Of a DNA stretch of 12,207 bases, positions 1 through 12,207 are shown in pieces (the first letter of the stretch is position 1; each line of letters begins with the position of its first letter). Under the pieces are notes generated by a model, which saw only the letters and a list, made by a program, of their open reading frames with translations, was not told the origin of the DNA and ran no database searches. The DNA is from Methanotrichaceae archaeon (lineage in GTDB: Archaea > Halobacteriota > Methanosarcinia > Methanotrichales > Methanotrichaceae), in NCBI GenBank assembly GCA_963748825.1, contig CAVVKN010000016.1, positions 1-12,207 of the forward strand, in the 5' to 3' direction. The translations under genes and the position numbers were made by a program.

Positions 1-206
1 TGGCTTGAGCCAGGGACTGAAATAGCGTGTGGTTATATTCCGTAACCGAGCGAGCTTATTAATCGCGAGCAAAGCTTAAGCCCATGGACGGCAGAGCGAA
101 AAAAGGATAGAATTCCTGAGCGTGCACCCCTCCCCAACGGAAAGCGAGGCGGTAGTAGTATGACCCGAGCAATACCAAAAGCCCGGGTGATACTGAGCAA
201 CTAAAG

Positions 207-215
207 CTTTTTAAT
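207..215 (+). promoter_or_regulatory. Putative TATA box for the 240..1118 gene (probably leaderless mRNA)
   Basis: CTTTTTAAT preceded by AAAG about 25-33 nt upstream of ATG 240; no SD motif before the ATG. Confidence 0.5.
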
Positions 216-239
216 CTCTCCTTAGCATTTACTTAATCT

Positions 240-1118
240 ATGTTCTATCTTGGAGAATATGACGAAGAGACGGCCAAAGAGATCAAGGACTATCTAGATG
301 AAGCCGGTCTCAAGGTGGAGACTAGATCCTGCCTGGTGATGGAAGAAGAGACAACTTACACAATCAAGGACAATCTGAGCGCCGTCAAAGAGCTGATGAT
401 GGAGGATATCGAACAGTTCGAGCGATATTTGTCGGCACTAAGGAGCGTCCTGCCCCAGGCCACGACCGAAAATTTCGAGGACCTTTTCTTAAAAGAGCTG
501 GATCCGCTCATGATGGAGAAGAGAGACAAGATCATGGCGCTGTCCGAAAATCCGGAAAGCCTCTCCCTTGAAGATAGGGATGCTCTGAAATTCGGGTCCG
601 ACGAGTGGATGAACAACGCCCTCTCCATCTCAAAAGCCCGCACTTTTGCCGGGATGATCTTTTCTCTAAACGACATAAAGATCGGCGAGCCTCTAGAAAA
701 TAAGCTGGACGATCCAGTTATCGAGATAACGGTCGATCCGGATGACTATGAAGCCAGGCCGGAGCAGATGAAATGCGATATTGATTGTTATCTGGAGAAG
801 TCCGTCAATATCTTTGTCGATGAGTTTACCACCCCTCTTACCAGCGATCTGAATGACGAGTTTTGGGATGAATATCCCTCGGAAGCCCAGCGCCTTAAGG
901 TACTGGGATTGCTGATTGAAAAGCTGGCCACCTCGCCCGCTTCCCGCAAGATGGATTTTGCGCAGTTTGCCGAAGAATGCACCATGACTTTAGAGGATGA
1001 GAGCAGCGTTCTGAACGTTTATGGCGAAGATGTGGCCGAGGAGCTGGCCAGAGTGCTGGAGAAGAGCGGAGTCGTAAAGTGGAAGGGAGACAAGCTCAAG
1101 TGGAAGAGCAATAATTGA
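240..1118 (+). CDS. Acidic hypothetical protein (292 aa), possible C-terminal winged helix-turn-helix
   Basis: Long ORF with ATG start, very Glu/Asp-rich, T-rich terminator downstream; C-terminus EDVAEELARVLEKSGVVKWKGDKLKW resembles a recognition helix plus wing. Confidence 0.85.
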   Translation: MFYLGEYDEETAKEIKDYLDEAGLKVETRSCLVMEEETTYTIKDNLSAVKELMMEDIEQFERYLSALRSVLPQATTENFEDLFLKELDPLMMEKRDKIMALSENPESLSLEDRDALKFGSDEWMNNALSISKARTFAGMIFSLNDIKIGEPLENKLDDPVIEITVDPDDYEARPEQMKCDIDCYLEKSVNIFVDEFTTPLTSDLNDEFWDEYPSEAQRLKVLGLLIEKLATSPASRKMDFAQFAEECTMTLEDESSVLNVYGEDVAEELARVLEKSGVVKWKGDKLKWKSNN

Positions 1119-1148
1119 TTGGGCTTGCCCTCTTATGCCACCTGCGCA

Positions 1149-1163
1149 TTTTTTATCTTTTTT
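1149..1163 (+). terminator. Archaeal oligo-T terminator
   Basis: TTTTTTATCTTTTTT 30 nt after the stop at 1118. Confidence 0.55.
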
Positions 1164-1175
1164 GTGGGAGAGGGA

Positions 1176-1246
1176 CTTTATAAGCCATTTATAAGCACTT
1201 TATAAATCTTAAATACTCATGTTTATATACCCCCAGTTTATAAGGG
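1176..1246 (+). promoter_or_regulatory. tbp promoter region with an array of TATA boxes
   Basis: TTTATAA at 1177, 1188, 1199 and 1237; TTAAATA at 1209; TTTATATA at 1222. Confidence 0.7.
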
Positions 1247-1267
1247 ATAATCCGGAGATACTTGAGT

Positions 1268-1819
1268 ATGGAGTCCACAATTAATATTGAGAACGTGGTG
1301 GCATCTACCAAGCTGGCGGAAGCTTTCGACCTGCACAAGATCGAGGCCGAATTGGAGGGCGCCGAGTATAACAAGGAGAAGTTTCCCGGACTCGTCTACA
1401 GGGTCAAAGCCCCCAGAGCAGCTTTTCTTATATTCACTTCCGGCAAGGTGGTATGCACCGGAGCCAAGAACGTCGAGGATGTTCGCACGGTCATAACCAA
1501 TATGGCCAAGACACTCAAGTCCATAGGCTTCGAGAACATCGATCTGGAACCTGAGATCCACGTTCAGAACATTGTGGCCTCCGCAGATCTGAAGACGGAC
1601 TTGAACTTAAACGCCATTGCTCTGGGCCTGGGCCTGGAAAACATCGAGTACGAACCGGAGCAGTTTCCCGGCCTGGTCTACAGGATCAAGGTGCCCAAAG
1701 TGGTAGTGCTCATCTTCAGCTCCGGAAAACTGGTTGTGACGGGCGGCAAATCGCCAGCGGAGTGCGAGGAAGGCGTGCGCATCGTCCGGATGCAGCTGGA
1801 GAATATGGGGCTGCTTTAG
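1268..1819 (+). CDS. tbp: TATA-box-binding protein (183 aa)
   Basis: Two TBP repeats (NIENVVAS...[13 protein letters not shown]...[14 protein letters not shown] / VQNIVAS...[13 protein letters not shown]...[14 protein letters not shown]); ATG 1268 preferred over TTG 1262; GGAG at 1254-1257. Confidence 0.98.
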
Positions 1820-1820
1820 A

Positions 1821-1830
1821 TCTTTTTTTC
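1821..1830 (+). terminator. Oligo-T terminator of tbp
   Basis: TCTTTTTTTC directly after TAG. Confidence 0.6.
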
Positions 1831-1889
1831 TATAAAATCCACTTGGAATATATAAATCACTGACAAAAAAATATTTAAAGTCAGAACGC

Positions 1890-1905
1890 TAATTAAGCTT
1901 AATTA
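1890..1905. promoter_or_regulatory. Perfect 16-bp palindrome, putative operator
   Basis: TAATTAAGCTTAATTA is its own reverse complement; lies just downstream of a BRE/TATA-like AAAAAAATATTTAAAG (1865-1880). Confidence 0.45.
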
Positions 1906-1925
1906 AAGATAATGAAGGTGGGACT

Positions 1926-2066
1926 TTGTCTGACGTTAGCGAGCAGAAAGATGCAACTGCATTTGTGGATGGACTATTGAAAAGCAAATACTCCGACCTG
2001 ATCATTCTCTCGACAGTGATCCTGACCTTCTTGATTCTGATAATCGTATCTGCCACGTTAACATAA
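1926..2066 (+). CDS. Small (46 aa) tail-anchored membrane protein, not in ORF track
   Basis: TTG start after GAAGGTG SD (1914-1920); MSDVSEQKDATAFVDGLLKSKYSDLIILSTVILTFLILIIVSATLT*; hydrophobic C-terminal ~22 aa; stop overlaps the hisS 3' end. Confidence 0.6.
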   Translation: MSDVSEQKDATAFVDGLLKSKYSDLIILSTVILTFLILIIVSATLT

Positions 2067-3410
2067 TCCTTGAAAATGCTCTTTTAGCCTTTCCTCAATC
2101 TCCGCCAAGCTCAGGCTCTCCTGTGCCCCTCCGGACATATCGCGCAATGTGAGCTTGCCGGCATCCAGCTCGTCCTTGCCCACGATTACCACATAATTAG
2201 CGCCCGCACTGGCAGCTGCTTTGAGCTGGGCGCCCAAACTCCGGCCCATGACATCTATTACCAGAGGAACGCTTTTTCGAAGCACTCTGGCAATTTTCGT
2301 TGCCTGCACCTTGACATCAGGGGTAAAGGCTAAAAATACAGGCGATGTGCGCGACTGTTCCATCTGCACGACTTCCATGATGCGGTCAAAGCCCAGGCCG
2401 AAGCCTGTGGAAGAGGTCTCCTTGCCCCCGAAGAGGCTGGCCAGCTCGTAAGTTCCGCCGCCGCAGATCTGGCGCTGCGCGCCGAGGCCCTCAGCATAGA
2501 TCTCAAAGACAGTGCCGGAGTAGTACTCCAGGCCGCGCACGATCTCAAAGTCAATGGTGAAGTCGACTCCATAGGCGTCCAGAAGATCCACCGTCTCTTG
2601 GAATTCCTCCAGCCGCAGCTCGGCGCTTACCGCCCGCCCCTGGCGCGCTGAGCTGCGACCTTCTGTGGACGGAGCAACACCCGCGATCTCGCTCGCTGGA
2701 GCGGGCTCTCCGGCCGGAACAACATGCTCCATTTCCCGGACGATCTCGGCTGCCTTGTCCAGGGCAGGCTGCCCCTTCAGATCAATCAGCTCCAGCAGGC
2801 CGAGATGGCTCTGCCCGATATCCTCTAGGAGTACGGCGAGAGCTGAGCGCTCCTTCTTATCGATCATCCTCATGACCGTGGACCGGTGTTCCGTTCCGAT
2901 CTTGCCCAGAATGGACCGGATCAGCCCCAGGTAGCCGATGTGAATATCTCCGGCCACGCCCACGCTCCTCAGCATGCCGTCCGCGAGAGCTATGGCCTCC
3001 GCCTCAGAATCGGGCTTGGCGCCGCCTATGAGCTCTGCGCCCATCTGCCAGAACTCCCGAAAGCGCCCCCTCTGCGGCCGCTCGTAGCGAAAACAGTTGC
3101 CGAAATACCAGAGCCTCTGTGGCTTGGGGGAATTTTGCAGCTCGGAGACGTACATGCGCATCACGGGAGCTGTCAGCTCCGGGCGCAGGGCGAGATCGCG
3201 CCCACCCTTATCCGTGAAGCTGTAGATCTCCTCTACCACGGATGCGCCCGATTTTATGGTGAATAGCTCGAGATGCTCAAAAGTGGGGGTAGCTACCTCC
3301 TGGTATCCCCAGCGCTCTAATACATCCTGCATGGCCTTCTTGGCCCGGCCCCTTTTCTCTGTCTCCTCAGGGAGGAAATCCCTGGTGCCTCTCGGTCTCT
3401 GGATGGTCAT
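2058..3410 (-). CDS. hisS: Histidine--tRNA ligase
   Basis: PRGTRDFLP, LRPELTAP, motif 2 FRYERPQRGRFREFWQ, VRGLEYYSG, GGGTY, motif 3 GFGLGFDRI, C-terminal anticodon-binding domain. Confidence 0.98.
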   Translation of the reverse strand: MTIQRPRGTRDFLPEETEKRGRAKKAMQDVLERWGYQEVATPTFEHLELFTIKSGASVVEEIYSFTDKGGRDLALRPELTAPVMRMYVSELQNSPKPQRLWYFGNCFRYERPQRGRFREFWQMGAELIGGAKPDSEAEAIALADGMLRSVGVAGDIHIGYLGLIRSILGKIGTEHRSTVMRMIDKKERSALAVLLEDIGQSHLGLLELIDLKGQPALDKAAEIVREMEHVVPAGEPAPASEIAGVAPSTEGRSSARQGRAVSAELRLEEFQETVDLLDAYGVDFTIDFEIVRGLEYYSGTVFEIYAEGLGAQRQICGGGTYELASLFGGKETSSTGFGLGFDRIMEVVQMEQSRTSPVFLAFTPDVKVQATKIARVLRKSVPLVIDVMGRSLGAQLKAAASAGANYVVIVGKDELDAGKLTLRDMSGGAQESLSLAEIEERLKEHFQGLC

Positions 3411-3530
3411 ATCGGCAGAAGGAATGAAACAAAATGCCCTTATAGTTTGTGATGGCCCCGCGTCGAATCCGAAAGCCGCAAATAAAGATTACATCCACCA
3501 AAAATTAATAATTTTGGCCTTCTAGAAATC

Positions 3531-4274
3531 TCATTTGAGCTTTTCCTCGACTTCCGGGGAGCAAACAATGACCTGAACAGGTTTTATAATTATATTAGAG
3601 GTTGCTATGGCACTACCACCTTTTACAGTGTTTATGGCCTTGGTAGATATGCCACTAACTTCTATGTCCAGGTAATTTCTGGCCGACTCAGTCCCGAGGT
3701 AGCCATATTTTTTGCCGCCAGCAGCATTATCTCCTATGGCCGAGTCAAAGGCATTGTCAACTAATTGCTCAATGCCATTATCTTCAGATATTTCATCCGG
3801 CCTTTCATTTCTCGACTCATTTTCACTTCCAATAATCCCTATGTATAGATCATTGGTCAAGCCCAAATTTTCAGGATCACCATTCTGAGAATCTTCATAG
3901 ATCAGATCTCTTTTTTTGACTGTATTCACCGCGGACAAATCATTCAATCGCACCTCTGAGTGGGATTGATTCATGAGGATCTCTTCATTTGAAGGGGAGG
4001 GATGTGGCATAATAAATTTAATTTGTTTAGGCAAAGGAATCGAGGTTTTTCGCGAAGCCCATGGGAATGTGATCGTTTCGTTAGCAAGCTGAAGCTGGCC
4101 AAGTGTCGGCTTTTCTTGAGAGTGAATTAAATTAGAATGAGAATTTTTAATTCTATTGAGGCTGTCTTGTGCATTTGATAGCGGCTCAGCTACAGCCAAA
4201 CTCAAAATCATAAAAACGCATACGAAAATTAGCCCCACCAGCATTGCGCTGGTGGGCTTGAGCAAATCTTTCAT
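3531..4274 (-). CDS. Secreted hypothetical protein L1 (247 aa), paralog of 4882..5562
   Basis: N-terminal signal peptide; C-terminus GGSAIATSNIIIKPVQVIVCSPEVEEKLK nearly identical to that of L2. Confidence 0.85.
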   Translation of the reverse strand: MKDLLKPTSAMLVGLIFVCVFMILSLAVAEPLSNAQDSLNRIKNSHSNLIHSQEKPTLGQLQLANETITFPWASRKTSIPLPKQIKFIMPHPSPSNEEILMNQSHSEVRLNDLSAVNTVKKRDLIYEDSQNGDPENLGLTNDLYIGIIGSENESRNERPDEISEDNGIEQLVDNAFDSAIGDNAAGGKKYGYLGTESARNYLDIEVSGISTKAINTVKGGSAIATSNIIIKPVQVIVCSPEVEEKLK

Positions 4275-4275
4275 T

Positions 4276-4304
4276 TAAGCCATCTCGAGTGCTGAAAGCT
4301 CGAA
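4276..4304 (-). promoter_or_regulatory. Hairpin in the 31-nt S1-L1 spacer
   Basis: UUCGAG/CUCGAG stem with a 9-nt loop; equivalent stem in the S2-L2 spacer. Confidence 0.5.
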
Positions 4305-4305
4305 T

Positions 4306-4713
4306 TTACTCCTGGTTGGTCACTATCTTGATATTGTTAGTGGCTGTTGCGAAACCGAAGGCCATGGCCGTTCTATCTCCTACCTTGATATCCTCATAGT
4401 TTACCTTTATGCAGCAATCGTGGCAGGATTCAGAATTCTCCTCAGTTACCGGACAGCAATCACATTCTCCAGAATTCTGGTTTTTCTTAATTTCCAGATT
4501 GTTGGTCGCTGTGGCGAAAGGATCCACGTACCCAAAGGCCATCGCCTTATCATTTCCTATTACTAATTTGTCGAAGTTAGTGTCTGCAGTCGCAGGGAAT
4601 TTTAAAGCAGCATCCTGAGTCTCAAATATCCCACCCCCGAGAACGTTCAATGCACCAGCTGTGGAAAGAGCGGATAGCAATGCCACAACAAATAACGCCA
4701 CTATTTTTCTAAT
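4306..4713 (-). CDS. Small secreted two-repeat Cys-rich protein S1 (135 aa from ATT; track start GTG 4701)
   Basis: SD GAGGTGA (4724-4718) followed 4 nt later by ATT-AGA-AAA-ATA-GTG, giving signal peptide MRKIVALFVVALLSALSTAGA; two internal repeats ending ATATNNxxIxxNQ; linker CDCC...CHDCC. Confidence 0.85.
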   Translation of the reverse strand: MRKIVALFVVALLSALSTAGALNVLGGGIFETQDAALKFPATADTNFDKLVIGNDKAMAFGYVDPFATATNNLEIKKNQNSGECDCCPVTEENSESCHDCCIKVNYEDIKVGDRTAMAFGFATATNNIKIVTNQE

Positions 4714-4881
4714 TATATCACCTCAATATAGAATGTTCACTATTAAAAATACTTATAATTTTCGGTAAGATATATTAGTAACATAGATACTATTCGCCGT
4801 TAAGATGCCTAGCAGTAAAATTATAAATTTATACCGAGCAATCGCAAAAAATTGTTATGCTTGAAGAGGATTAAAGAATGC

Positions 4882-5562
4882 TCATTTGAGCTTCTCTTCA
4901 ACCTCAGAAGGACAGATGATGATCTGCACAGGTTTTATAATTATATTGGATGTGGCCACGGCACTGCCTCCCTGCACGGTATTAACGGCGCTGACAGAGA
5001 TACCGGCAACGTCGATGTTCAAATTGTTGCCGATAGGCTGTAATTGTGTACTTTCTCTTGCCATTTGGCCAGTTTTTTCCTCATTTTTCAGGCTGGAATT
5101 CAAAGCGTTATCAACAATTTCATCTATATGGTCATCTTCCCACCTTTCGCCTGGCCAGGTCTTCTTCGCCTTCTCTTGGCCAGTGACAGCTACATCCAGG
5201 AAATTGGCAATTCCCCGTGCTTCTGGATCCCCATACTGCTCGCCATCGTAAATGATATCTCTCTCTTTTGCAGAATTCACAACCTTCAGATCCGATACCT
5301 GCTCCGTTGAGTGAGACTCATTCAGGGCAATCTTTTCTTCCGAGGGCGAAAAGCCATACAGAAGGCCGGAAGTAGTAGGTGGTCTTACCAACCATTCGCG
5401 AGGATTATGGTTGAAAGGGCCGGATCGTGACTCTTTCAGCTCTTTTTGTAAATCAGGCAAACCAGGCGACAGCTCAGACGCGGCCACATTTAGCGAAATA
5501 AGAAGACAAATAAAAACGGCCCCCACCAGCAGACGGCTAGTGGGTTCTAGTATTTTTTCCAT
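4882..5562 (-). CDS. Secreted hypothetical protein L2 (226 aa), paralog of 3531..4274
   Basis: Start moved to ATG 5562: MEKILEPTSRLLVG aligns with L1 MKDLLKPTSAMLVG, has GAGGGA upstream and gives the same 31-nt spacer; signal peptide; conserved C-terminus. Confidence 0.85.
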   Translation of the reverse strand: MEKILEPTSRLLVGAVFICLLISLNVAASELSPGLPDLQKELKESRSGPFNHNPREWLVRPPTTSGLLYGFSPSEEKIALNESHSTEQVSDLKVVNSAKERDIIYDGEQYGDPEARGIANFLDVAVTGQEKAKKTWPGERWEDDHIDEIVDNALNSSLKNEEKTGQMARESTQLQPIGNNLNIDVAGISVSAVNTVQGGSAVATSNIIIKPVQIIICPSEVEEKLK

Positions 5563-5563
5563 T

Positions 5564-5593
5564 GTTTCATCCCTCGGGCTCATTGCCCCGAAG
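5564..5593 (-). promoter_or_regulatory. Hairpin in the 31-nt S2-L2 spacer
   Basis: CUUCGGG/CCCGAGG 7-bp stem overlapping the GAGG SD-like sequence of L2. Confidence 0.5.
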
Positions 5594-6082
5594 TTACTGC
5601 TGGTTGGTCACAATCTCAATGTCGTTGGTCGCAGAGACACCGCCAGTATTGAAGGACGCTCCAAAGATAGTCCCTCCAACGCCAGCACCAATTGCCAACG
5701 CATTTCTATTGCCGACTCTGATCTGCTCGATGTTATACTTGGGACTGCAGGCGGAGCATGTCTGGCTGTCGCCGGTATCCTGGTTCTTCTTGATCTTCAG
5801 ATGGTTGGTTGCAGTTACAGTTCCTGTATTGACACCCAGAATTCCGATCCCCGGGCCTACTCCGGCGCCTATTGCCCGGGCTAGATCATTTCCAACATCA
5901 ATCGAGTCGTAGTTCGTGTTGACTGCGGCAGGGAACTTGAATGCGCCCGCTCCGGTCTCAAATATGCCCTGACCGAGGATGTCCACGCCGCCGCTTCCTA
6001 TCATTGCCGACTGAGCCAAGGCAGGAGCCGCAAATGCAGCCAATGCCATAGCCAGCACAAAGAACATTGCTACTATTTTAAT
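5594..6082 (-). CDS. Small secreted two-repeat Gly-rich protein S2 (162 aa from ATT; track start ATG 6067)
   Basis: SD GGGGTGA (6093-6087) followed 4 nt later by ATT-AAA-ATA-GTA-GCA-ATG, giving MKIVAMFFVLAMALAAFAAPALA; shares GIFET...KFPA and both repeats with S1; CSAC linker. Confidence 0.85.
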   Translation of the reverse strand: MKIVAMFFVLAMALAAFAAPALAQSAMIGSGGVDILGQGIFETGAGAFKFPAAVNTNYDSIDVGNDLARAIGAGVGPGIGILGVNTGTVTATNHLKIKKNQDTGDSQTCSACSPKYNIEQIRVGNRNALAIGAGVGGTIFGASFNTGGVSATNDIEIVTNQQ

Positions 6083-6130
6083 AATATCACCCCATTAACC
6101 CTTTTAGGTTGTACTTAACTAAGTTTCAAT

Positions 6131-6147
6131 TATATATATACTTTTTG
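6131..6147 (-). promoter_or_regulatory. BRE/TATA promoter for the S2-L2 cassette
   Basis: Minus strand CAAAAAGTATATATATA about 50 nt upstream of the ATT start. Confidence 0.6.
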
Positions 6148-6635
6148 GTGTTTTTTACTGGGAAATCATAGATTTATAGAAATATTCTGGTCGAGAAATT
6201 TTGCATGCAATATGCATTGCCGATAATACGATAGATACTCACAAATACCGAAATGCAGCAAACATAAAGGCCCATCAAAATAATATTAGTTAAAAATTTG
6301 TATAAATAAAAAGATCATGAAAAGCAAAATAAACCAGATAAGTGGACAAGGGCTCGATCTTATCCCGTTTGCAGTAGAGACGTCGAGGCGGTCGGAAAAG
6401 TAAACAATTTTTACAAATTTTACTTAATGTCAGTCAATAATTCATTTGCACTCGAGAGATACGTCTTCATGATACTGAAACAGATAGAAGATGCCGGTTT
6501 TGCCAAAGGGAATCAATATGTGGGTGCCACACACATTATATCAAACATTGCAGTTCCCGGAACCATTGGCTTAATAATTGGCGGCCCTGTTTAGGTACAA
6601 TCAGAAATTGGAAGTAGGGTGGCAGGCGATGTTAT

Positions 6636-6701
6636 GGCGAGCGTACTGGTAATCTTCGGGCTATGCCAGCTAGTACAAATGCCTAACGAAGTTGGTTTTC
6701 T
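6636..6701 (+). repeat. Dispersed ~65-bp repeat, copy A
   Basis: Aligns to 12139-12202 with 53 identities in 67 columns by manual count; core TACTGGTAATCTT(A)CGGGCT. Confidence 0.7.
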
Positions 6702-7152
6702 TCATCTACATCTCTCCATGGATTGATGTTGCTTAACTTATTATCCACTCGGGGAGGTTCACGCCACTCTCGTGCCTTAACTATCGTTCACACGAAAATG
6801 CTTTGGGACCAATGCTTCCTTTCGGATGCGTAAGCTTTAATAACTTCTCTACGGAATAGGATTACGTATAGGCCTTAAGAATCGTTTGCCTCCTTATGGT
6901 CTATTTCCCCATTTATCTTTGAATTTGAAGGCTTTTCGCGGTTTCATGTTGCTGACCTCAAGTTATCATGAAATGGAATCTGGAGAAGGAATCAAGAAAT
7001 CGGCAAGCAGGATAACTAACCACTCAGTCCGGATGGCTGGATTGGCATCCCAGAGGGTTTGTAGCTCCTGTCACACCCAAACGAAATAGCGGGGAACCTT
7101 TTTTATTATATGAAATTAAAAAATATTTCTGAAAGTATTCACTCCTTGCCAA

Positions 7153-8328
7153 TTATCCCCTCATCATCCCTACTAGCTCCGTCGCCTCTACTAGCCCGTA
7201 TGCGCCCTGCTTTGCAGCGTCCTCATCAAAGCGCTCCACACTGTCCTGCTCAATTCCCGTGCCCATGATGGTGAAGGGCACAGGATCGCGGCTGTGCGTC
7301 TTGATGGAAATGGGTGTGGCATGGTCGGGAAGGAGAAGCACGCGCCAATCTTCGCCACTCTTCTCCAGCCCCTCTACCACCGGACCCACGACCTTTTCAT
7401 CGAATAGCTCAATGGCTCTCACCTTCAGCAAGGTGTTGCCCTCGTGGCCTGCTTCATCAGGGGCCTCGATGTGCAGATAGACGAAGTCACTGCTCTTCAG
7501 AGCCTCTAGTGTCGCCTGCACTTTTCCCTCATAATTGGTATCTATGGTGCCGGTGGCGCCTGGGACGTCTATGACCTGCAGCCCGGCGTACCTGCCGATG
7601 CCCTTGAGCAGGTCCACCGCTGAGATCATGGCTCCTTTCAGCCCGTACTTTTCGGCAAAGGATGGCATGACCGGCGCTGGCCCCTGCCCCCAAAGCCATA
7701 TCGCGTTAGCGGGGCGTTTGCCCTCAGAAATGCGCTTTTTGTTCACGGGGTGGCTAGCCAGGACGGGCCGGGCTGCTTCCATGAGTCGCGTGAGCAGCTC
7801 GGAGTCCGGGCCGCGGGGCAAATGATCCTGGATGGGCTGGTCGCTGATGTCGTGAGGCGGGGTGCAGACGGCGTTCGCTCCCGCCTTCATGACAAGGAGG
7901 TTTCGGTAGCTCACGCCGGCGTAAAGCCGCCTTCCGGGCATGAGGGGCTGTAGTGTCTCGATCAGATCGCGGCCCTCCTCTGTTGTGATGTGCCCGGCGC
8001 TGTAGTCTTTCATGATGCCATCAACAATGGTCACAAAATTGCAGCGAAAGGCGATGTCGGCTTCGCCAAGGGCCACGCCCATGGCCGCTGCCTCCAACGG
8101 TGCGCGACCTGAGTAGTGCTTGCCGGGCGCATAGCCCATGACGGAAAGATTGGCCACATCGCTTCCTGGTGGAAAACCTTCTGGAACTGTTTGGGCCAGA
8201 CCGCTCTTGCCCTGTCGGGCTAGCCGGTCCATGTTGGGCTTTTTGGCCGCCTGCAAAGGCGTCTTGCCCTGCAAAGCCGCCAGCGGCAGGTCTGCCATGC
8301 CGTCGCCTAAGAGAACTACGAGCTTCAT
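7153..8328 (-). CDS. apgM: 2,3-bisphosphoglycerate-independent phosphoglycerate mutase, archaeal ApgM family (391 aa)
   Basis: MKLVVLLGDGMAD, KTPLQAAKKPNMD, PGSDVANLS (catalytic Ser), GRAPLEAA, PPHDI, HIEAPDEAGHEG, PDHATP, HSRDPVP; start ATG 8328 (alternative 8340), not 8517. Confidence 0.95.
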   Translation of the reverse strand: MKLVVLLGDGMADLPLAALQGKTPLQAAKKPNMDRLARQGKSGLAQTVPEGFPPGSDVANLSVMGYAPGKHYSGRAPLEAAAMGVALGEADIAFRCNFVTIVDGIMKDYSAGHITTEEGRDLIETLQPLMPGRRLYAGVSYRNLLVMKAGANAVCTPPHDISDQPIQDHLPRGPDSELLTRLMEAARPVLASHPVNKKRISEGKRPANAIWLWGQGPAPVMPSFAEKYGLKGAMISAVDLLKGIGRYAGLQVIDVPGATGTIDTNYEGKVQATLEALKSSDFVYLHIEAPDEAGHEGNTLLKVRAIELFDEKVVGPVVEGLEKSGEDWRVLLLPDHATPISIKTHSRDPVPFTIMGTGIEQDSVERFDEDAAKQGAYGLVEATELVGMMRG

Positions 8329-8620
8329 CAAGCTTTCCATTCTAGAAAATAGTATTAATCGTCTTCGTCTGGATCTCGCGCTAAGCCGCGAAGATTGCAT
8401 CTTCCTGACTGACGAAAATGGCTGGCCGATGGTCAAGGCTGGGCGGTGCGATGAAAAAACGCCCTGCAGGATCTTGCGGCTTCCTGGCCTGCGCCCCCTC
8501 AGGCATCGATCTTCCACCGCCGGGTTTTATGCTCTTGCGAGACTACTGCCCCTGGTTACGAGAGTCGCGCCATTTCCTTGTGATCAACGTACAACTAGGA
8601 CCAAGTCCTTTAATCCCATT

Positions 8621-9064
8621 TCATACGAAAACTGTATTATCTATAACGATTAGATAGGTACTTGCCGCGAGATAAGGCTGTAGCCGATTAAGCTCCGAGA
8701 ATTGGGCACCTCGCTTGATTGCGAAGTCTTCGGCGAGTGCGAGAATCTGGCGTACCTCGTTCAGTTCTTGTATGAGCGCGGCAAGAATCGAAATGTGTGC
8801 AGGCGAAGCGGGAGCAGGCTCTTCATCTCTGATGATGTGTCCCTGTAAGAAGGGCACTGTGGATCGGCGCTTGACTCGCCTAAAACATCACTGCATTATC
8901 GCTCTATTCTCAGGCTCTTTATCCATCCCAGGACGACCTCTCGTCGATGCAGCCAGGAACATAAAGGCATTGTACTCAAAGAGTACGTATAACTTGCGGG
9001 ACGCTTATTTCGTTACCGGCCTTTACCTTAACACGTCCAAAATCGCTTCTGGCAAACTGCCCAT
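8621..9064 (-). pseudogene. Possible decayed gene of unknown family
   Basis: One reading frame from ATG 9064 (MGSLPEAILDVLR*...) through three in-frame stops into the 78-aa ORF with amphipathic helix ILAALIQELNEVRQILALAEDF. Confidence 0.25.
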
Positions 9065-9463
9065 TCCAGCACACTATGGAATGTTTATCGACAATTGCCC
9101 AATGATGGTTTTTCGCTATCAATGAATTTAGAATACCCCCTTATAGTCCGGAGCGCAACATTAGACCTTACGAGGTCGAAAGCATATTTATAAAATTGGG
9201 CTAGGCCCTTATACTAGCCCGGAATGTTGTCTAATTTAGTACGTGTAACATGCAAAATCATTCTGTGATAATCTAGCCTGGAAAAATAAGATGGTTCATT
9301 GAATCCGTTCCATTGAGCATACATATGTGCACATTCAACTCCATCAAAGTGATGTAGTTTTGGATTGACCCTGAAAAAGTGCCGATAGCTATCGCTCTAT
9401 TAGTCGACCTATTAGGGAAGCTAGTTTTAATAATAGGATCTAACAATTATATGGTGAAAAATC

Positions 9464-9797
9464 ATGAAGAAACTTTGGTGCTTGTACATCCTCTTATTTA
9501 GCCTCTTGATAGGAGCATCATCAAGTCAGGAGTCATGGGATCTTGGTTCTCCTGGTGATTGGGTTGAGTGTAGGTCCCGTATACCATGTTGGCCCATATT
9601 ACTATCCAAATAGCGATCTTCCTATTGGGACCCAGAAATTTCTAAATACTTATCCTGCATACAGTCCATACTACTATCAGACCTCTTATTGGACTGAATA
9701 TCCTTACTACAATCTATACCGCTACCCTCACTACTACAATTTCGACTCTTATCCGTTAGGAACTTTTGGTTTATTCCACGGAAGTAATTGGTATTAG
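9464..9797 (+). pseudogene. Frameshifted Tyr-rich secreted protein (110 aa if one G is removed at 9561-9563)
   Basis: SD GGTGA at 9453, ATG 9464, signal peptide MKKLWCLYILLFSLLIGASSS; removing one G joins ...SPGDW to LSVGPVYHVGPYYYP... of the 9543..9797 frame. Confidence 0.7.
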
Positions 9798-10092
9798 CGA
9801 AGCCCACCACTCAATTTGAAGGCAACGCATGGATGAATCCTTTTTAACTATTACTACTAGGTGATTACATCTAGCTAGCGCCAATGCGTATCGATCTTTA
9901 ACTATGTTCATGTGCGGGAGATGAGAACCTCGCGCGTTAATACGAAAGCGCAAACCATGTATGGTTTTTTGTCAAAACAAATATATGGACATAGTCGAAT
10001 CTAGTCAGGATAGTAAATTATAGTGCTTTCTAGTTTTTAATTGTAAATAGTTTTAAATGCAAATATAGCATAATAGTCTTCGGTGAAACTAA

Positions 10093-10884
10093 ATGAAATA
10101 TGGCAAAATTTTGCCGGTTATGATGGCACTCGCAGCGTGCTTGCTAATTGGTATCGCATGTGGACAAGACTATCTGGGAGGTGGAAACGTTGCAAGTTCC
10201 AGTGGTAGTGGCAGCTCAATAGGATCTAGCGGAGATTGGATTAGCCCCAACATGGATGGCGGATACGTTAGAGACCGTTCTATGACAGACTCAGGGATAG
10301 CTAGCATGTTGAAGTGGCTCGATACGCCAGTCCCCAACGTCCCCTTGTACACTAAGGGTGGAGCCATTTATAACCAAGCGGTTCCCGACACCACTTTCTC
10401 TCCTTTCACGCAGTATTATGTAACCTCCGGTACGCCTGTAGTAGGTGGAATAATAAGCAATCCTACCATGTTCGATATAACGAAGAAAACACCCACAGCT
10501 GTGTACTACGGTGCCGGTGTGGGGTTGCCTTACCCCCAGTATGCAGCCACAGTGACATCCAAGACCAACGACCTCTGGATCCAAGGAGCTACAGACTGGA
10601 CACAGTATGTGGTAAGCCCTGTTGGAACCTGGCTACAACTGGTCGCCTACGCACCTGTTGCAGGGCCTGCGGGCTTCTATGAGACGACCCAGACCGACAC
10701 AACCAGTACGAAATACAAAACCTATCAGTTCAACCAGGGTTATAATACCATGAACTTCTATGCTGACCAGGTTGGAAGACATATGCTCTACTTCGTTGTA
10801 AACAGCCAGCCCAGCAACACAGTCATAGTGGATGTATTTTCCCAGGCCCCAGGGTCAACGAAGCCCGTACATACAATGTCTTAG
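10093..10884 (+). CDS. Secreted hypothetical surface protein (263 aa), paralog of 11012..12133
   Basis: SD GGTGA at 10082, signal peptide MKYGKILPVMMALAACLLIGIACG, Ser/Gly-rich N-terminus, beta-rich Thr/Tyr-rich core. Confidence 0.9.
   Translation: MKYGKILPVMMALAACLLIGIACGQDYLGGGNVASSSGSGSSIGSSGDWISPNMDGGYVRDRSMTDSGIASMLKWLDTPVPNVPLYTKGGAIYNQAVPDTTFSPFTQYYVTSGTPVVGGIISNPTMFDITKKTPTAVYYGAGVGLPYPQYAATVTSKTNDLWIQGATDWTQYVVSPVGTWLQLVAYAPVAGPAGFYETTQTDTTSTKYKTYQFNQGYNTMNFYADQVGRHMLYFVVNSQPSNTVIVDVFSQAPGSTKPVHTMS
10441..10851 (+). repeat. Tandem duplication copy 1 (partner 11393..11803)
   Basis: About 31 mismatches in 411 nt by manual count (~92% identity), no gaps, mostly synonymous. Confidence 0.9.
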
Positions 10885-11011
10885 AGGTAATGTATCAATG
10901 AAACAAAAATATGAGATTGATAATAGGTACATTTCAACCGCCTAGGATCAATGCTATCAATCTCACATATTTTTATTAGGCAATAAAATGCTGCTCTACA
11001 GGTGTGATGAA

Positions 11012-12133
11012 ATGAAATACTGCAAAGTTTTGCTGTGTATGACGGCACTCGCAGCGTGCTTGCTAATTGGTATCGCATATGGACAAGACTATCTAGAAGG
11101 CGGAAACGTTAAAAGTTCCAGTGGTAGTGGCAGCGTAATGGGATCTGGCGGAGATTATCTTAGTCCCAACATGGGCCAAAAGTACCCGACAGACTGGCTG
11201 GAAGGCGGATATGTTAGAAGTTCCGACCGTTCGATTGTGGACCCAGGAATAGCTGGCATGTTGCATTGGCTCGATACGCCTGTCCCCAACTTCCCCTGGT
11301 ACACTGCCAGTGATGCCTTCTACACCAAATCGTATAGCTACACTACGTTCTCGCCCTACACAGAATATTATGTACCCTCCGGTTCGCCTGTCGTGGGTGG
11401 GATAATAAGCAATCCTACTATGTTCGATATAACGAAGAAAACGCCATCTAGAGTGTACTACGGTGCCGGTGTAGGGTTGCCATACACCCAGTATGAAGCC
11501 ACAGTGACATCCAAGACCAACGACCTCTGGATCCAGGGAGCAACAAACTGGACACAGTATGTGGTAAGCCCTGTTGGAACCTGGTTACAGCTAATCGCCT
11601 ACGCACCCGTTGCAGGATCTGCAGGCTTCTATGAGACGATCCAGACCGACACAACCAGTACGAAATACAAAACCTATCAGTTCAACCAGGGTTATAACAC
11701 CATGAACTTCTATGCTGACCAGGTTGGAAGACATATGCTCAACTTCGTGGTAAACAGCCAGCCCAGCAACACAGTCATAGTGGATGTGTTTGCCCAGGCC
11801 CCATCGACTCAGTACCGGACCTACGCTCCGACCACAATGACACCAACCGTGTCAACGCTGCCGCAAACGACTTCTGTTGGCGGAGACACCCCTGTGACAA
11901 TCCAGTCCCAAGGCATGAGAGGTTATCAGGTATTCCTGGATGGAAATTACATAGGCACCGAGGGAACCGGTGGAGATCCTCTCGACGGAAGGTTCAGCTT
12001 TAACGTTGTTGGTAACCAGAACCACGACATTAGAGTCTACGATGGTCAGTTTAACTACCCGAAGACAATGTACTTCTCAAGGGGTGTCCAAAAGATAATC
12101 AATGTGGAACCAGGAACGGCGGTCTACATTTAG
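11012..12133 (+). CDS. Secreted hypothetical surface protein (373 aa) with Thr/Pro linker and C-terminal PEGA-like beta domain
   Basis: Start moved to ATG 11012 (MKYCKVLL, matches paralog MKYGKILP; AGGTG at 11000); C-terminal VTIQSQGMRGYQVFLDGNYIG...HDIRV resembles the PEGA signature. Confidence 0.88.
   Translation: MKYCKVLLCMTALAACLLIGIAYGQDYLEGGNVKSSSGSGSVMGSGGDYLSPNMGQKYPTDWLEGGYVRSSDRSIVDPGIAGMLHWLDTPVPNFPWYTASDAFYTKSYSYTTFSPYTEYYVPSGSPVVGGIISNPTMFDITKKTPSRVYYGAGVGLPYTQYEATVTSKTNDLWIQGATNWTQYVVSPVGTWLQLIAYAPVAGSAGFYETIQTDTTSTKYKTYQFNQGYNTMNFYADQVGRHMLNFVVNSQPSNTVIVDVFAQAPSTQYRTYAPTTMTPTVSTLPQTTSVGGDTPVTIQSQGMRGYQVFLDGNYIGTEGTGGDPLDGRFSFNVVGNQNHDIRVYDGQFNYPKTMYFSRGVQKIINVEPGTAVYI
11393..11803 (+). 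repeat. Tandem duplication copy 2 (partner 10441..10851)
   Basis: ~92% nucleotide identity to 10441..10851, offset 952 nt. Confidence 0.9.
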
Positions 12134-12138
12134 ATCAC

Positions 12139-12202
12139 GGCGATCTTACTGGTAATCTTACGGGCTTTTCCAGTTAGAACAATGTCTATAGATGTTGTTT
12201 CT
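12139..12202 (+). repeat. Dispersed ~65-bp repeat, copy B
   Basis: Matches 6636-6701; begins 5 nt after the stop of the 373-aa gene; may extend beyond the window. Confidence 0.7.
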
Positions 12203-12207
12203 GATGG

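Follow-up and report, generated by a model that had tools for sequence, protein, structure and literature searches.

Candidate AUU, AUC and AUA start codons in a family of predicted exported proteins of Methanotrichaceae

Described near-cognate starts and the S genes

The ebpA gene of Enterococcus faecalis, which encodes a pilus tip protein, is reported to start at an ATT codon, and replacement of this ATT with ATG is reported to raise output, so that the weak codon throttles surface assembly (Montealegre et al. 2015, PMC4447247). By analogy, ebpA appears to be the closest known system in biology to the two paralogous genes analyzed here, denoted S1 and S2, which are located on the minus strand of a 12,207-nucleotide (nt) stretch of DNA from a Methanotrichaceae archaeon (GCA_963748825.1, contig CAVVKN010000016.1, positions 1 to 12,207). 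This stretch, hereafter the window, makes up the entire contig C16 (12.2 kb); the assembly totals 2.88 Mb and is 95% complete. In most of the family (about nine in ten members), S1 and S2 included, the real start codon is probably AUH (AUU, AUC or AUA; ATH in the DNA), judging from the conservation of this codon and its surroundings. As ebpA is presented in the published account, the two cases have in common an exported protein of a surface structure (predicted, for S), a wrongly annotated downstream ATG, a rare ATT ahead of the signal sequence, and lysines close behind. They differ in that ebpA is a single gene of a bacterium, with initiation fidelity of the initiation factor 3 (IF3) type and a start proven by mutagenesis, whereas the S genes belong to an archaeon with initiation of the aIF1/aIF2 type (archaeal initiation factors 1 and 2), form a paralog family in 12 genera in which ATT, ATC and ATA are interchangeable, and have a start predicted from the sequence.

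Most work on start-codon choice in archaea has been done in vitro or with haloarchaea, and the accepted set comprises AUG, GUG and UUG. Among bacteria, AUU starts are described for infC and pcnB of Escherichia coli and, in Deinococcus, an ATC start for dnaA and an ATA start for infC (Baudet et al. 2009, PMC2830850; review PMC4705826). As treated in those sources, these genes resemble S in that AUH is located behind a Shine-Dalgarno (SD) sequence, is conserved in relatives, was overlooked by gene callers, and restores a conserved N-terminus; unlike S, they encode cytoplasmic regulators or housekeeping proteins, and the infC codon is part of a proven IF3 autoregulatory loop. For S, no autoregulatory loop is evident, and aIF1 itself starts at ATG. 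Ribosome profiling of Haloferax volcanii is reported to have assigned about 30% of the putative alternative sites to near-cognate codons, which were set aside as possible false positives (PMC7261190), and a 'rare ATT start codon' is mentioned for the Asgard tubulin AtubA, as a single-gene inference in a methods section (PMC13394414). The AtubA case resembles S in being drawn from a restored N-terminus and a plausible distance to the ribosome-binding site; as described there, neither the Haloferax sites nor AtubA represent a conserved family-wide feature with exchange of ATG and ATH at one site. For Methanosarcina mazei, new small open reading frames (ORFs) detected by Ribo-seq are reported with only ATG, TTG, GTG and CTG starts. 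Our literature search found no characterized archaeal AUH start, only the AtubA inference and the Haloferax hits that were set aside, and no paper on Methanothrix start codons in connection with signal peptides.

The mechanism that the S sequences suggest is the known near-cognate initiation behind an SD; what would be new is that it is archaeal and family-wide, with interchangeable AUU, AUC and AUA and with natural AUG controls. Under this mechanism, AUU, AUC or AUA located 4 nt behind a strong SD (G[A/G]GGUGA) would serve as the translation start, the ordinary initiator Met-tRNA would read AUH with a third-base mismatch, and the first residue would presumably be Met. The protein so made would begin with a 21- or 23-residue Sec signal peptide of the standard form M-(K/R)(K/R/Q)-hydrophobic core-AxA. 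The strong SD, open RNA and an AAA or AGA second codon would keep the AUH site usable, and the weak codon may limit or condition the output of exported, probably self-assembling proteins.

The start regions of S1 and S2 and their conservation

On the minus strand, which carries all the features described in this section, the S1 start region reads TGA (4725-4723) GGT GAT ATA (4716-4714) ATT (4713-4711) AGA AAA ATA GTG (4701-4699), and that of S2 reads TAA (6097-6095) TGG GGT GAT ATT (6085-6083) ATT (6082-6080) AAA ATA GTA GCA ATG (6067-6065). The respective layouts are GAGGTGA-TATA-ATT and GGGGTGA-TATT-ATT, and the frames translate as GDIIRKIVALF... and WGDIIKIVAMFF.... The proposed S1 start codon, ATT at 4711..4713, opens a coding sequence of 135 codons plus stop (4306..4713) that would begin with a Sec-type signal peptide of 21 residues, M-RK-IVALFVVALLSALSTAGA (4651..4713; in-house rule). 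It is preceded by the SD GAGGTGAT (4717..4724), which is complementary to the 3' tail of 16S rRNA at 8 of 8 positions and has a duplex energy of -12.9 kcal/mol, and an in-frame TGA (4723..4725) shuts the frame four codons ahead. The GTG that is the S1 start by ORF logic (4699..4701) lies 16 nt past the SD and leaves no K or R. In S2, the proposed start codon, ATT at 6080..6082, opens 162 codons plus stop (5594..6082), and the signal peptide predicted by the same rule, M-K-IVAMFFVLAMALAAFAAPALA, spans 23 residues followed by Q (6014..6082). The SD is GGGGTGAT (6086..6093; -12.0 kcal/mol), an in-frame TAA (6095..6097) shuts the frame five codons ahead, and the ATG that ORF logic and public gene callers take as the start (6065..6067) lies 19 nt past the SD.

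Both ATT codons are 4 nt past the aligned SD end, at the position that is ATH or ATG in homologs; GAGGTGAT and GGGGTGAT end 3 nt before ATT, and the distance is 4 nt when measured from GGTGA. The sequence-only reading of this DNA had placed the ATT, SD and in-frame stop codons at these minus-strand coordinates, with a strong SD 4 nt before both ATT codons, the GTG at 16 nt and the ATG at 19 nt; all the coordinates are correct, and remeasurement from the end of GGTGA returned the same distances. In both genes, near-cognate codons occur in tandem (ATT-ATT in S2, ATA-ATT in S1), the first of the pair only 1 nt past the SD. Among the 99 ATH genes of the family, the codon ahead of the start site is ATT in 49, ACT in 39, ATA in 6, ACC in 3, AAC in 1 and AGC in 1; it is not a conserved near-cognate codon and is no candidate for the start.

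The 16S rRNA tail of this genome reads ...GGATCACCTCCT, and the spacing between SD and start peaks at 3-7 nt, with counts of 84, 148, 104, 174 and 100 compared with 0 to 35 at the other spacings displayed (2886 long-ORF starts). Measured from the end of GGTGA, the ATH codon, at 4 nt, falls within this peak, whereas the GTG at 4701 (16 nt), the ATG at 6067 (19 nt) and the TTG of the paralog on contig C6 (25 nt) fall in the background; the S genes have an SD that is complementary to the organism's own 16S tail and located at its own preferred spacing. Duplex energies across the family range from -10.5 to -13.5 kcal/mol, with a median of -10.95 that falls within the strongest 6% of 2882 background starts, and the start region is folded no more than in shuffled sequences (z of +0.98 and +0.81).

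Homologs of S were detected in 22 of the 24 sampled congeners, in 82 of 105 genomes across the taxonomic family (13 of 16 genus codes), and in none of 16 genomes from two other families of the class; those at 74-89% identity carry the NCBI name 'hypothetical protein [Methanothrix sp.]'. The homologous loci yielded 119 distinct ORFs, 110 of them with parsed 5' ends, the other 9 being affected by truncation at a contig or locus end, a frameshift, or a long upstream open frame. With L088 and L089 excluded (366-residue proteins related only in the C-terminal part), 108 genes from 12 genus codes of one taxonomic family were counted. The codon at the start site is ATC in 49 of these, ATT in 44, ATA in 6 and ATG in 7, and in 2 genes ATH is directly followed by ATG; the corresponding numbers for the window's own genus are ATT 39, ATC 39 (the copy on contig C24 of the same genome included), ATA 5, ATG 1, and ATH followed by ATG 1. 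Among the first 64 genes, the first two bases do not vary (A and T in 64/64), and the third base is C in 31, T in 27, A in 5 and G in 1. The near-cognate layout, with ATT, ATC or ATA at the site, is present in 100 of the 108 parsed homologs, and the ATT is not peculiar to this assembly. Given these paralogs and homologs, the S1/S2 layout is beyond chance.

The genome encodes two other S paralogs, on contigs C6 (about 85272) and C24 (frameshifted), both with GGGGTGAG ATT ATC AAA AAA and the same layout. The C24 copy, the fourth S paralog (G000 contig C24, about 25521-25990, minus strand), is frameshifted after about 45 codons, as a result of either pseudogenization or an assembly error, and is followed by an L paralog, L being the gene with which S is paired.

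Several homologs have ATG at exactly the site in question. In L071, which reads AAGGGGTGAATAA-ATG-AAA-AAA, the ATG is located 4 nt past GGGGTGA and a stop codon directly precedes it; L068 and L069, sister paralogs from one genome (Shimodaira-Hasegawa-like approximate likelihood ratio test, SH-aLRT, 100), carry ATC and ATG, respectively; and ATG is found at the same site also in L036, L080, L081, L083 and L084.

Behind the near-cognate codon, which is kept in orthologs and paralogs, evolution is of the coding type. In the 99 ATH genes, codon +1 encodes K in 63, R in 29 and E in 7, and its third base is A in 78 and G in 21, never T or C; K or R occurs within four codons of the site in 99 of the 99 pure ATH genes; and the glycine at codon +4 is encoded by GGA, GGC and GGT alike. 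A three-base periodicity of T at second codon positions sets in at +10, before most canonical starts are reached. Counted from the ATH codon, the signal peptide is 21 residues long in 62 of 100 genes and 23 residues long in 24 of 100 (86/100 together), and its predicted end is mostly A-x-A, followed by Q. With the ATH start, the net charge is +2 in 48 genes, +1 in 12 and 0 in 4 (64 genes, two of them ATG-start), whereas from the canonical codon it is 0 in 62 of 64. By in-house rules, the S proteins are thus predicted to possess a Sec-type (class I) signal peptide with a basic n-region, a hydrophobic core of ~10-15 residues and small residues at -3 and -1.

Alternative starts and points against AUH

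Several considerations weigh against AUH as the start codon. The start is predicted from the sequence, and the N-terminus would be cleaved off on export. Signal peptides were assessed by simple in-house rules, not by SignalP. The archaeal N-terminal Met is unformylated, so a signal peptide without K or R is conceivable. The ATH/ATG pattern also fits an ordinary conserved Ile codon; a start codon is preferred over this possibility because the upstream frame is closed. A 5-mer SD match was found in only 682 of the 2886 long-ORF starts of the genome, which implies that SD-independent initiation must be common in this organism, and the SDs of the ATG genes are not weaker than those of the ATH genes, as compensation for a weak codon would have it (mean -11.6 vs -11.5 kcal/mol). 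A canonical codon lies 3-5 codons downstream in S1, S2 and 13 other genes, so that a second start or dual initiation is possible there. Finally, aIF1 is reported, in a review, to reject AUU in Sulfolobus (PMC4705826).

Two further features of the start regions bear on the alternatives. A two-codon mini-ORF (NTG-RGG-TGA) in a different frame shares nucleotides with the SD and terminates 4 nt ahead of ATH: ATG GGG TGA at 6087..6095 in S2 and TTG AGG TGA at 4726-4718 in S1, both on the minus strand. On the same strand, TATATATATAA at 6130..6140 is, by eye, the likely archaeal TATA box of S2, and AAATTATAAGTA at about 4750-4761 the likely TATA-like counterpart of S1. The S1 box lies ~12 nt nearer the SD than the boxes of other paralog groups (about 28 vs about 40 nt to the mini-ORF start; by eye, compared with L008, L011 and L013), and the S1 leader may be very short.

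Both S genes are covered by RNA-library contigs of related strains (95-99% alike); contigs X1-X3 come from RNA libraries and X17 from a library of unrecorded type, and such contigs give no transcript start, level or strand. The S2 contigs end at 6077, 6094 (followed by sequencing-adapter letters) and 6096, the last two coming from two studies and located beside the mini-ORF ATG at 6095-6093; these two ends may represent the 5' end or just loss of coverage. Because the contigs reach 6094 and 6096, that is, 27-29 nt upstream of the ATG at 6067, the S2 transcript includes the SD and the position of the ATT at 6082 and is not leaderless at the annotated ATG. The S1 contigs end at 4662-4672, short of the start region, and have no bearing either way.

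Translation might begin at the first canonical codon downstream (GTG 4701, ATG 6067), in which case the SD and the ATH-K/R stretch would be an untranslated leader, for example, a standby site. The canonical codons are located just 4 (S1) and 5 (S2) codons past the ATT, public gene calls use such codons (MFFVLAMAL...), the 682 SD matches among 2886 starts indicate that SD-less initiation exists, and Met, being unformylated, has a free amino group that might take the place of the basic n-region. However, at 16, 19 and 25 nt past the SD, these codons belong to the background of the spacing profile and lack a conserved position: the first ATG, GTG or TTG in frame is found 1-77 codons downstream of the site (mode 7), and in 21 of 100 genes its use would leave 13 or fewer residues before the cleavage site, with the entire signal peptide lost in some. 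L064 (G091:C46, locus about 1446-1887), with ATA at the site and no canonical in-frame codon for 77 codons, is an intact 147-residue protein with all the family motifs and appears to be the cleanest single case of a non-canonical start; the first canonical codon lies at 19 codons in L087, which is at the cleavage site, and at 13 in L031, and all three proteins would lose the signal peptide. Untranslated DNA would not be expected to preserve K/R codons that end only in A or G in 99 of 99 genes or to hold a constant distance of 21 or 23 residues to the cleavage site, and the sister genes with ATG at the ATH site likewise speak against a leader. Downstream initiation is possible as a second site where the codon is 3-5 codons away, as in S1 and S2, but it cannot hold family-wide, and we regard it as an unlikely account of the S start. 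Nor does an upstream start, with an N-terminal extension such as MKLWGETIEK..., fare better: an in-frame canonical codon is available in 20 of 100 ATH genes, and there are public records such as MKLWGETIEKVAIFF and MSLWGETIRQ, but there is no such codon between the upstream stop and the site in 80 of 100, S1 and S2 among them, where the stops four and five codons upstream exclude it (the stop is only 4-5 codons away in 26 genes). Where present, the codon lies anywhere from 3 to 69 codons away, often in or before the TATA box sequence (...TKKYKYY...), so this extension is hardly credible at all. The S genes, in sum, combine the lack of a canonical start at a functional distance with a frame that is closed upstream.

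According to another scenario, the mini-ORF (ATG GGG TGA in S2, TTG AGG TGA in S1) is translated first, and ribosomes terminating at its UGA restart at AUH or shift frame. A start codon in the frame of the mini-ORF, whose stop falls within GGTGA, occurs in 84 of the 99 ATH genes compared with 3 of the 9 ATG genes, A is present at -13 in 59 and T at -12 in 53 of 64 genes, and the RNA-library contigs that end at 6094 and 6096 do so beside the ATG. Set against this, the start codon is missing in 15 of the 99 ATH genes, which have AAG, ACG or TAG in place of NTG, as is expected neither for a prfB-type +1 frameshift nor for reinitiation; the comparison by phylogenetically independent pairs had only 4-6 pairs and no power; no SD is found ahead of the mini-ORF; the TATA box ~40 nt upstream (by eye, in two paralog groups) would predict a leader of ~14 nt, not a 5'-terminal AUG; and contigs cannot reveal transcript ends. 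In the frameshift version, the N-terminus would be M-G-D/E-I/T-I..., which is dispensable judging by the ATG-start homologs (L071). Altogether, translation of the mini-ORF is a very unlikely source of the S start. A dedicated initiator-like tRNA or the loss of aIF1, which would make AUH a regular start throughout the organism, is extremely unlikely. Among the 42 tRNAs predicted by ARAGORN in this 95% complete assembly, one is a normal initiator (CAT, GGG/CCC anticodon stem) and one is Ile-GAT, and no initiator-like tRNA reading AUH was found. The SUI1/aIF1 gene is present (85 bits vs a cut-off of 25.5) and has an ATG start behind GGAGGT, a normal SD. Furthermore, AUH is not enriched behind orphan SDs genome-wide (ATT 7, ATC 6 and ATA 6, compared with 5.5 for the average of 57 codons), and among the SD-led signal-peptide-like ORFs of the genome, 106 start at ATG, whereas only the three intact S genes and one further candidate are clean cases of ATH. 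AUH starts are not a genome-wide habit.

We infer that ribosomes start at AUH because the layout is conserved, the SD lies at the usual spacing, the sequence behind the codon evolves as coding sequence, and ATG has taken its place in some genes. The SD spacing, the conservation in the family, the signal peptide, the closed upstream frames and the presence of ATG at the same site in some homologs agree with the ATT codons named in the sequence-only reading, which are the most likely starts of the two S genes.

Initiation fidelity, selection and the S proteins

In a quick maximum-likelihood tree of the mature parts of the proteins (LG+G4, 127 columns), which is unrooted and includes many unresolved forks, so that the counts of changes are minima, the codon at the start site changed state at least 32 times; no fewer than 25 of these changes turned one of ATT, ATC and ATA into another, and no fewer than 6 were between ATG and ATH. 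The conserved trait thus appears to be AT-not-G (92%) rather than ATT as such. The idea that ATT was retained in the two diverged paralogs holds for a near-cognate AT-not-G codon, which is kept family-wide, but not for ATT itself, given the changes among the three codons. The selected translational tuning proposed on the same grounds is plausible at most, given that 7 genes have ATG at the site and 2 have it at the next codon, with at least 6 exchanges between ATG and ATH. Selection against ATG is not formally demonstrable because transitions between T and C dominate and the tree is unrooted. Still, the best start codon is one step away and has not swept across ~100 genes, which suggests that ATG is not favored at this site. 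Two explanations offer themselves: initiation is meant to be low or conditional, or the third base has little weight in this context.

It is rather unlikely that the weak AUH start is itself selected, with aIF1 determining how often the 30S subunit, held on an SD duplex of 8-9 bp, accepts AUU, AUC or AUA. Under such selection, S output would be tied to the state of initiation fidelity, for example, growth phase or filament extension, and the AUG-GGG-UGA mini-ORF found in 84 of 99 genes could serve as a second gate. If this were the case, the S genes would represent the first regulon in nature that responds to aIF1 and would parallel, in archaea, the logic of infC and IF3. The link to aIF1 status suggested in the sequence-only reading found no support, the aIF1 gene being present and ordinary, with a normal SD and ATG. 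The aIF1 gene lies within an exact repeat of ~2.4 kb on G000 contig C23 (18101-18316 and 23093-23308), with the two copies 4,992 bp apart; either the fidelity factor is truly duplicated or the assembly is at fault.

The further candidate outside the S family is an ATC start on G000 contig C2 at about 84,420 (converted from the script index), minus strand, located behind GAGAGGT and giving MRTIWFIATAIMLAMLFGLVSSAFAQEP, with the frame closed upstream. Most of the other ATH hits in the scan for SD plus signal peptide were codons directly ahead of a real ATG and were discarded. A tandem pair on contig C9 flagged in the orphan-SD control was rejected as well, as it has an ordinary GGAGGTGG-ATG start further downstream.

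The AUH codons, if they are the starts, amount to ~100 natural sites, and sister genes have AUG at the identical position; the set lends itself to comparison and experiment on how SD anchoring and aIF1 set initiation fidelity. The finding is also of use for annotation, as gene finders cut off the predicted export signals of the S proteins. The public gene-caller N-termini are of at least four kinds (records P0001-P0109: MFFVLAM..., MALAAF..., MKLWGETIEK... and VLVKSNLKGLWGE...), and such cut-short or over-extended N-termini make database cluster lengths and signal-peptide predictions unreliable for the S family. Signal-peptide screens, such as those for Methanothrix sheath or surface proteins, can therefore miss the S proteins.

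The S proteins are Cys-containing, internally repeated, predicted to be exported, all-beta according to AlphaFold2, and paired with an L gene. No Pfam family was found for S1, S2, L1 or L2, and neither an Rfam match nor a tRNA was found in the window. For mature S2, AlphaFold2 returned an all-beta model that contains an internal repeat and whose mean predicted local distance difference test score (pLDDT) of only 55.2 is too poor for a fold search. The archaeal sheath (SH) proteins are reported to have a core of two beta-sheets of six antiparallel strands, as well as a signal peptide (PMC11576556). The comparison of S2 with SH is limited to this low-confidence all-beta model (pLDDT 55.2), and a sequence search of the PDB returned nothing below an E value of 0.33.

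The S module is also found fused to other parts. A domain related to the S repeat (...NNIxIxxNQ) forms the C-terminal end of three larger proteins with ordinary ATG starts, L088 and L089 (G055 and G056; 366 residues) and L050 (G015:C19; more than 221 residues).

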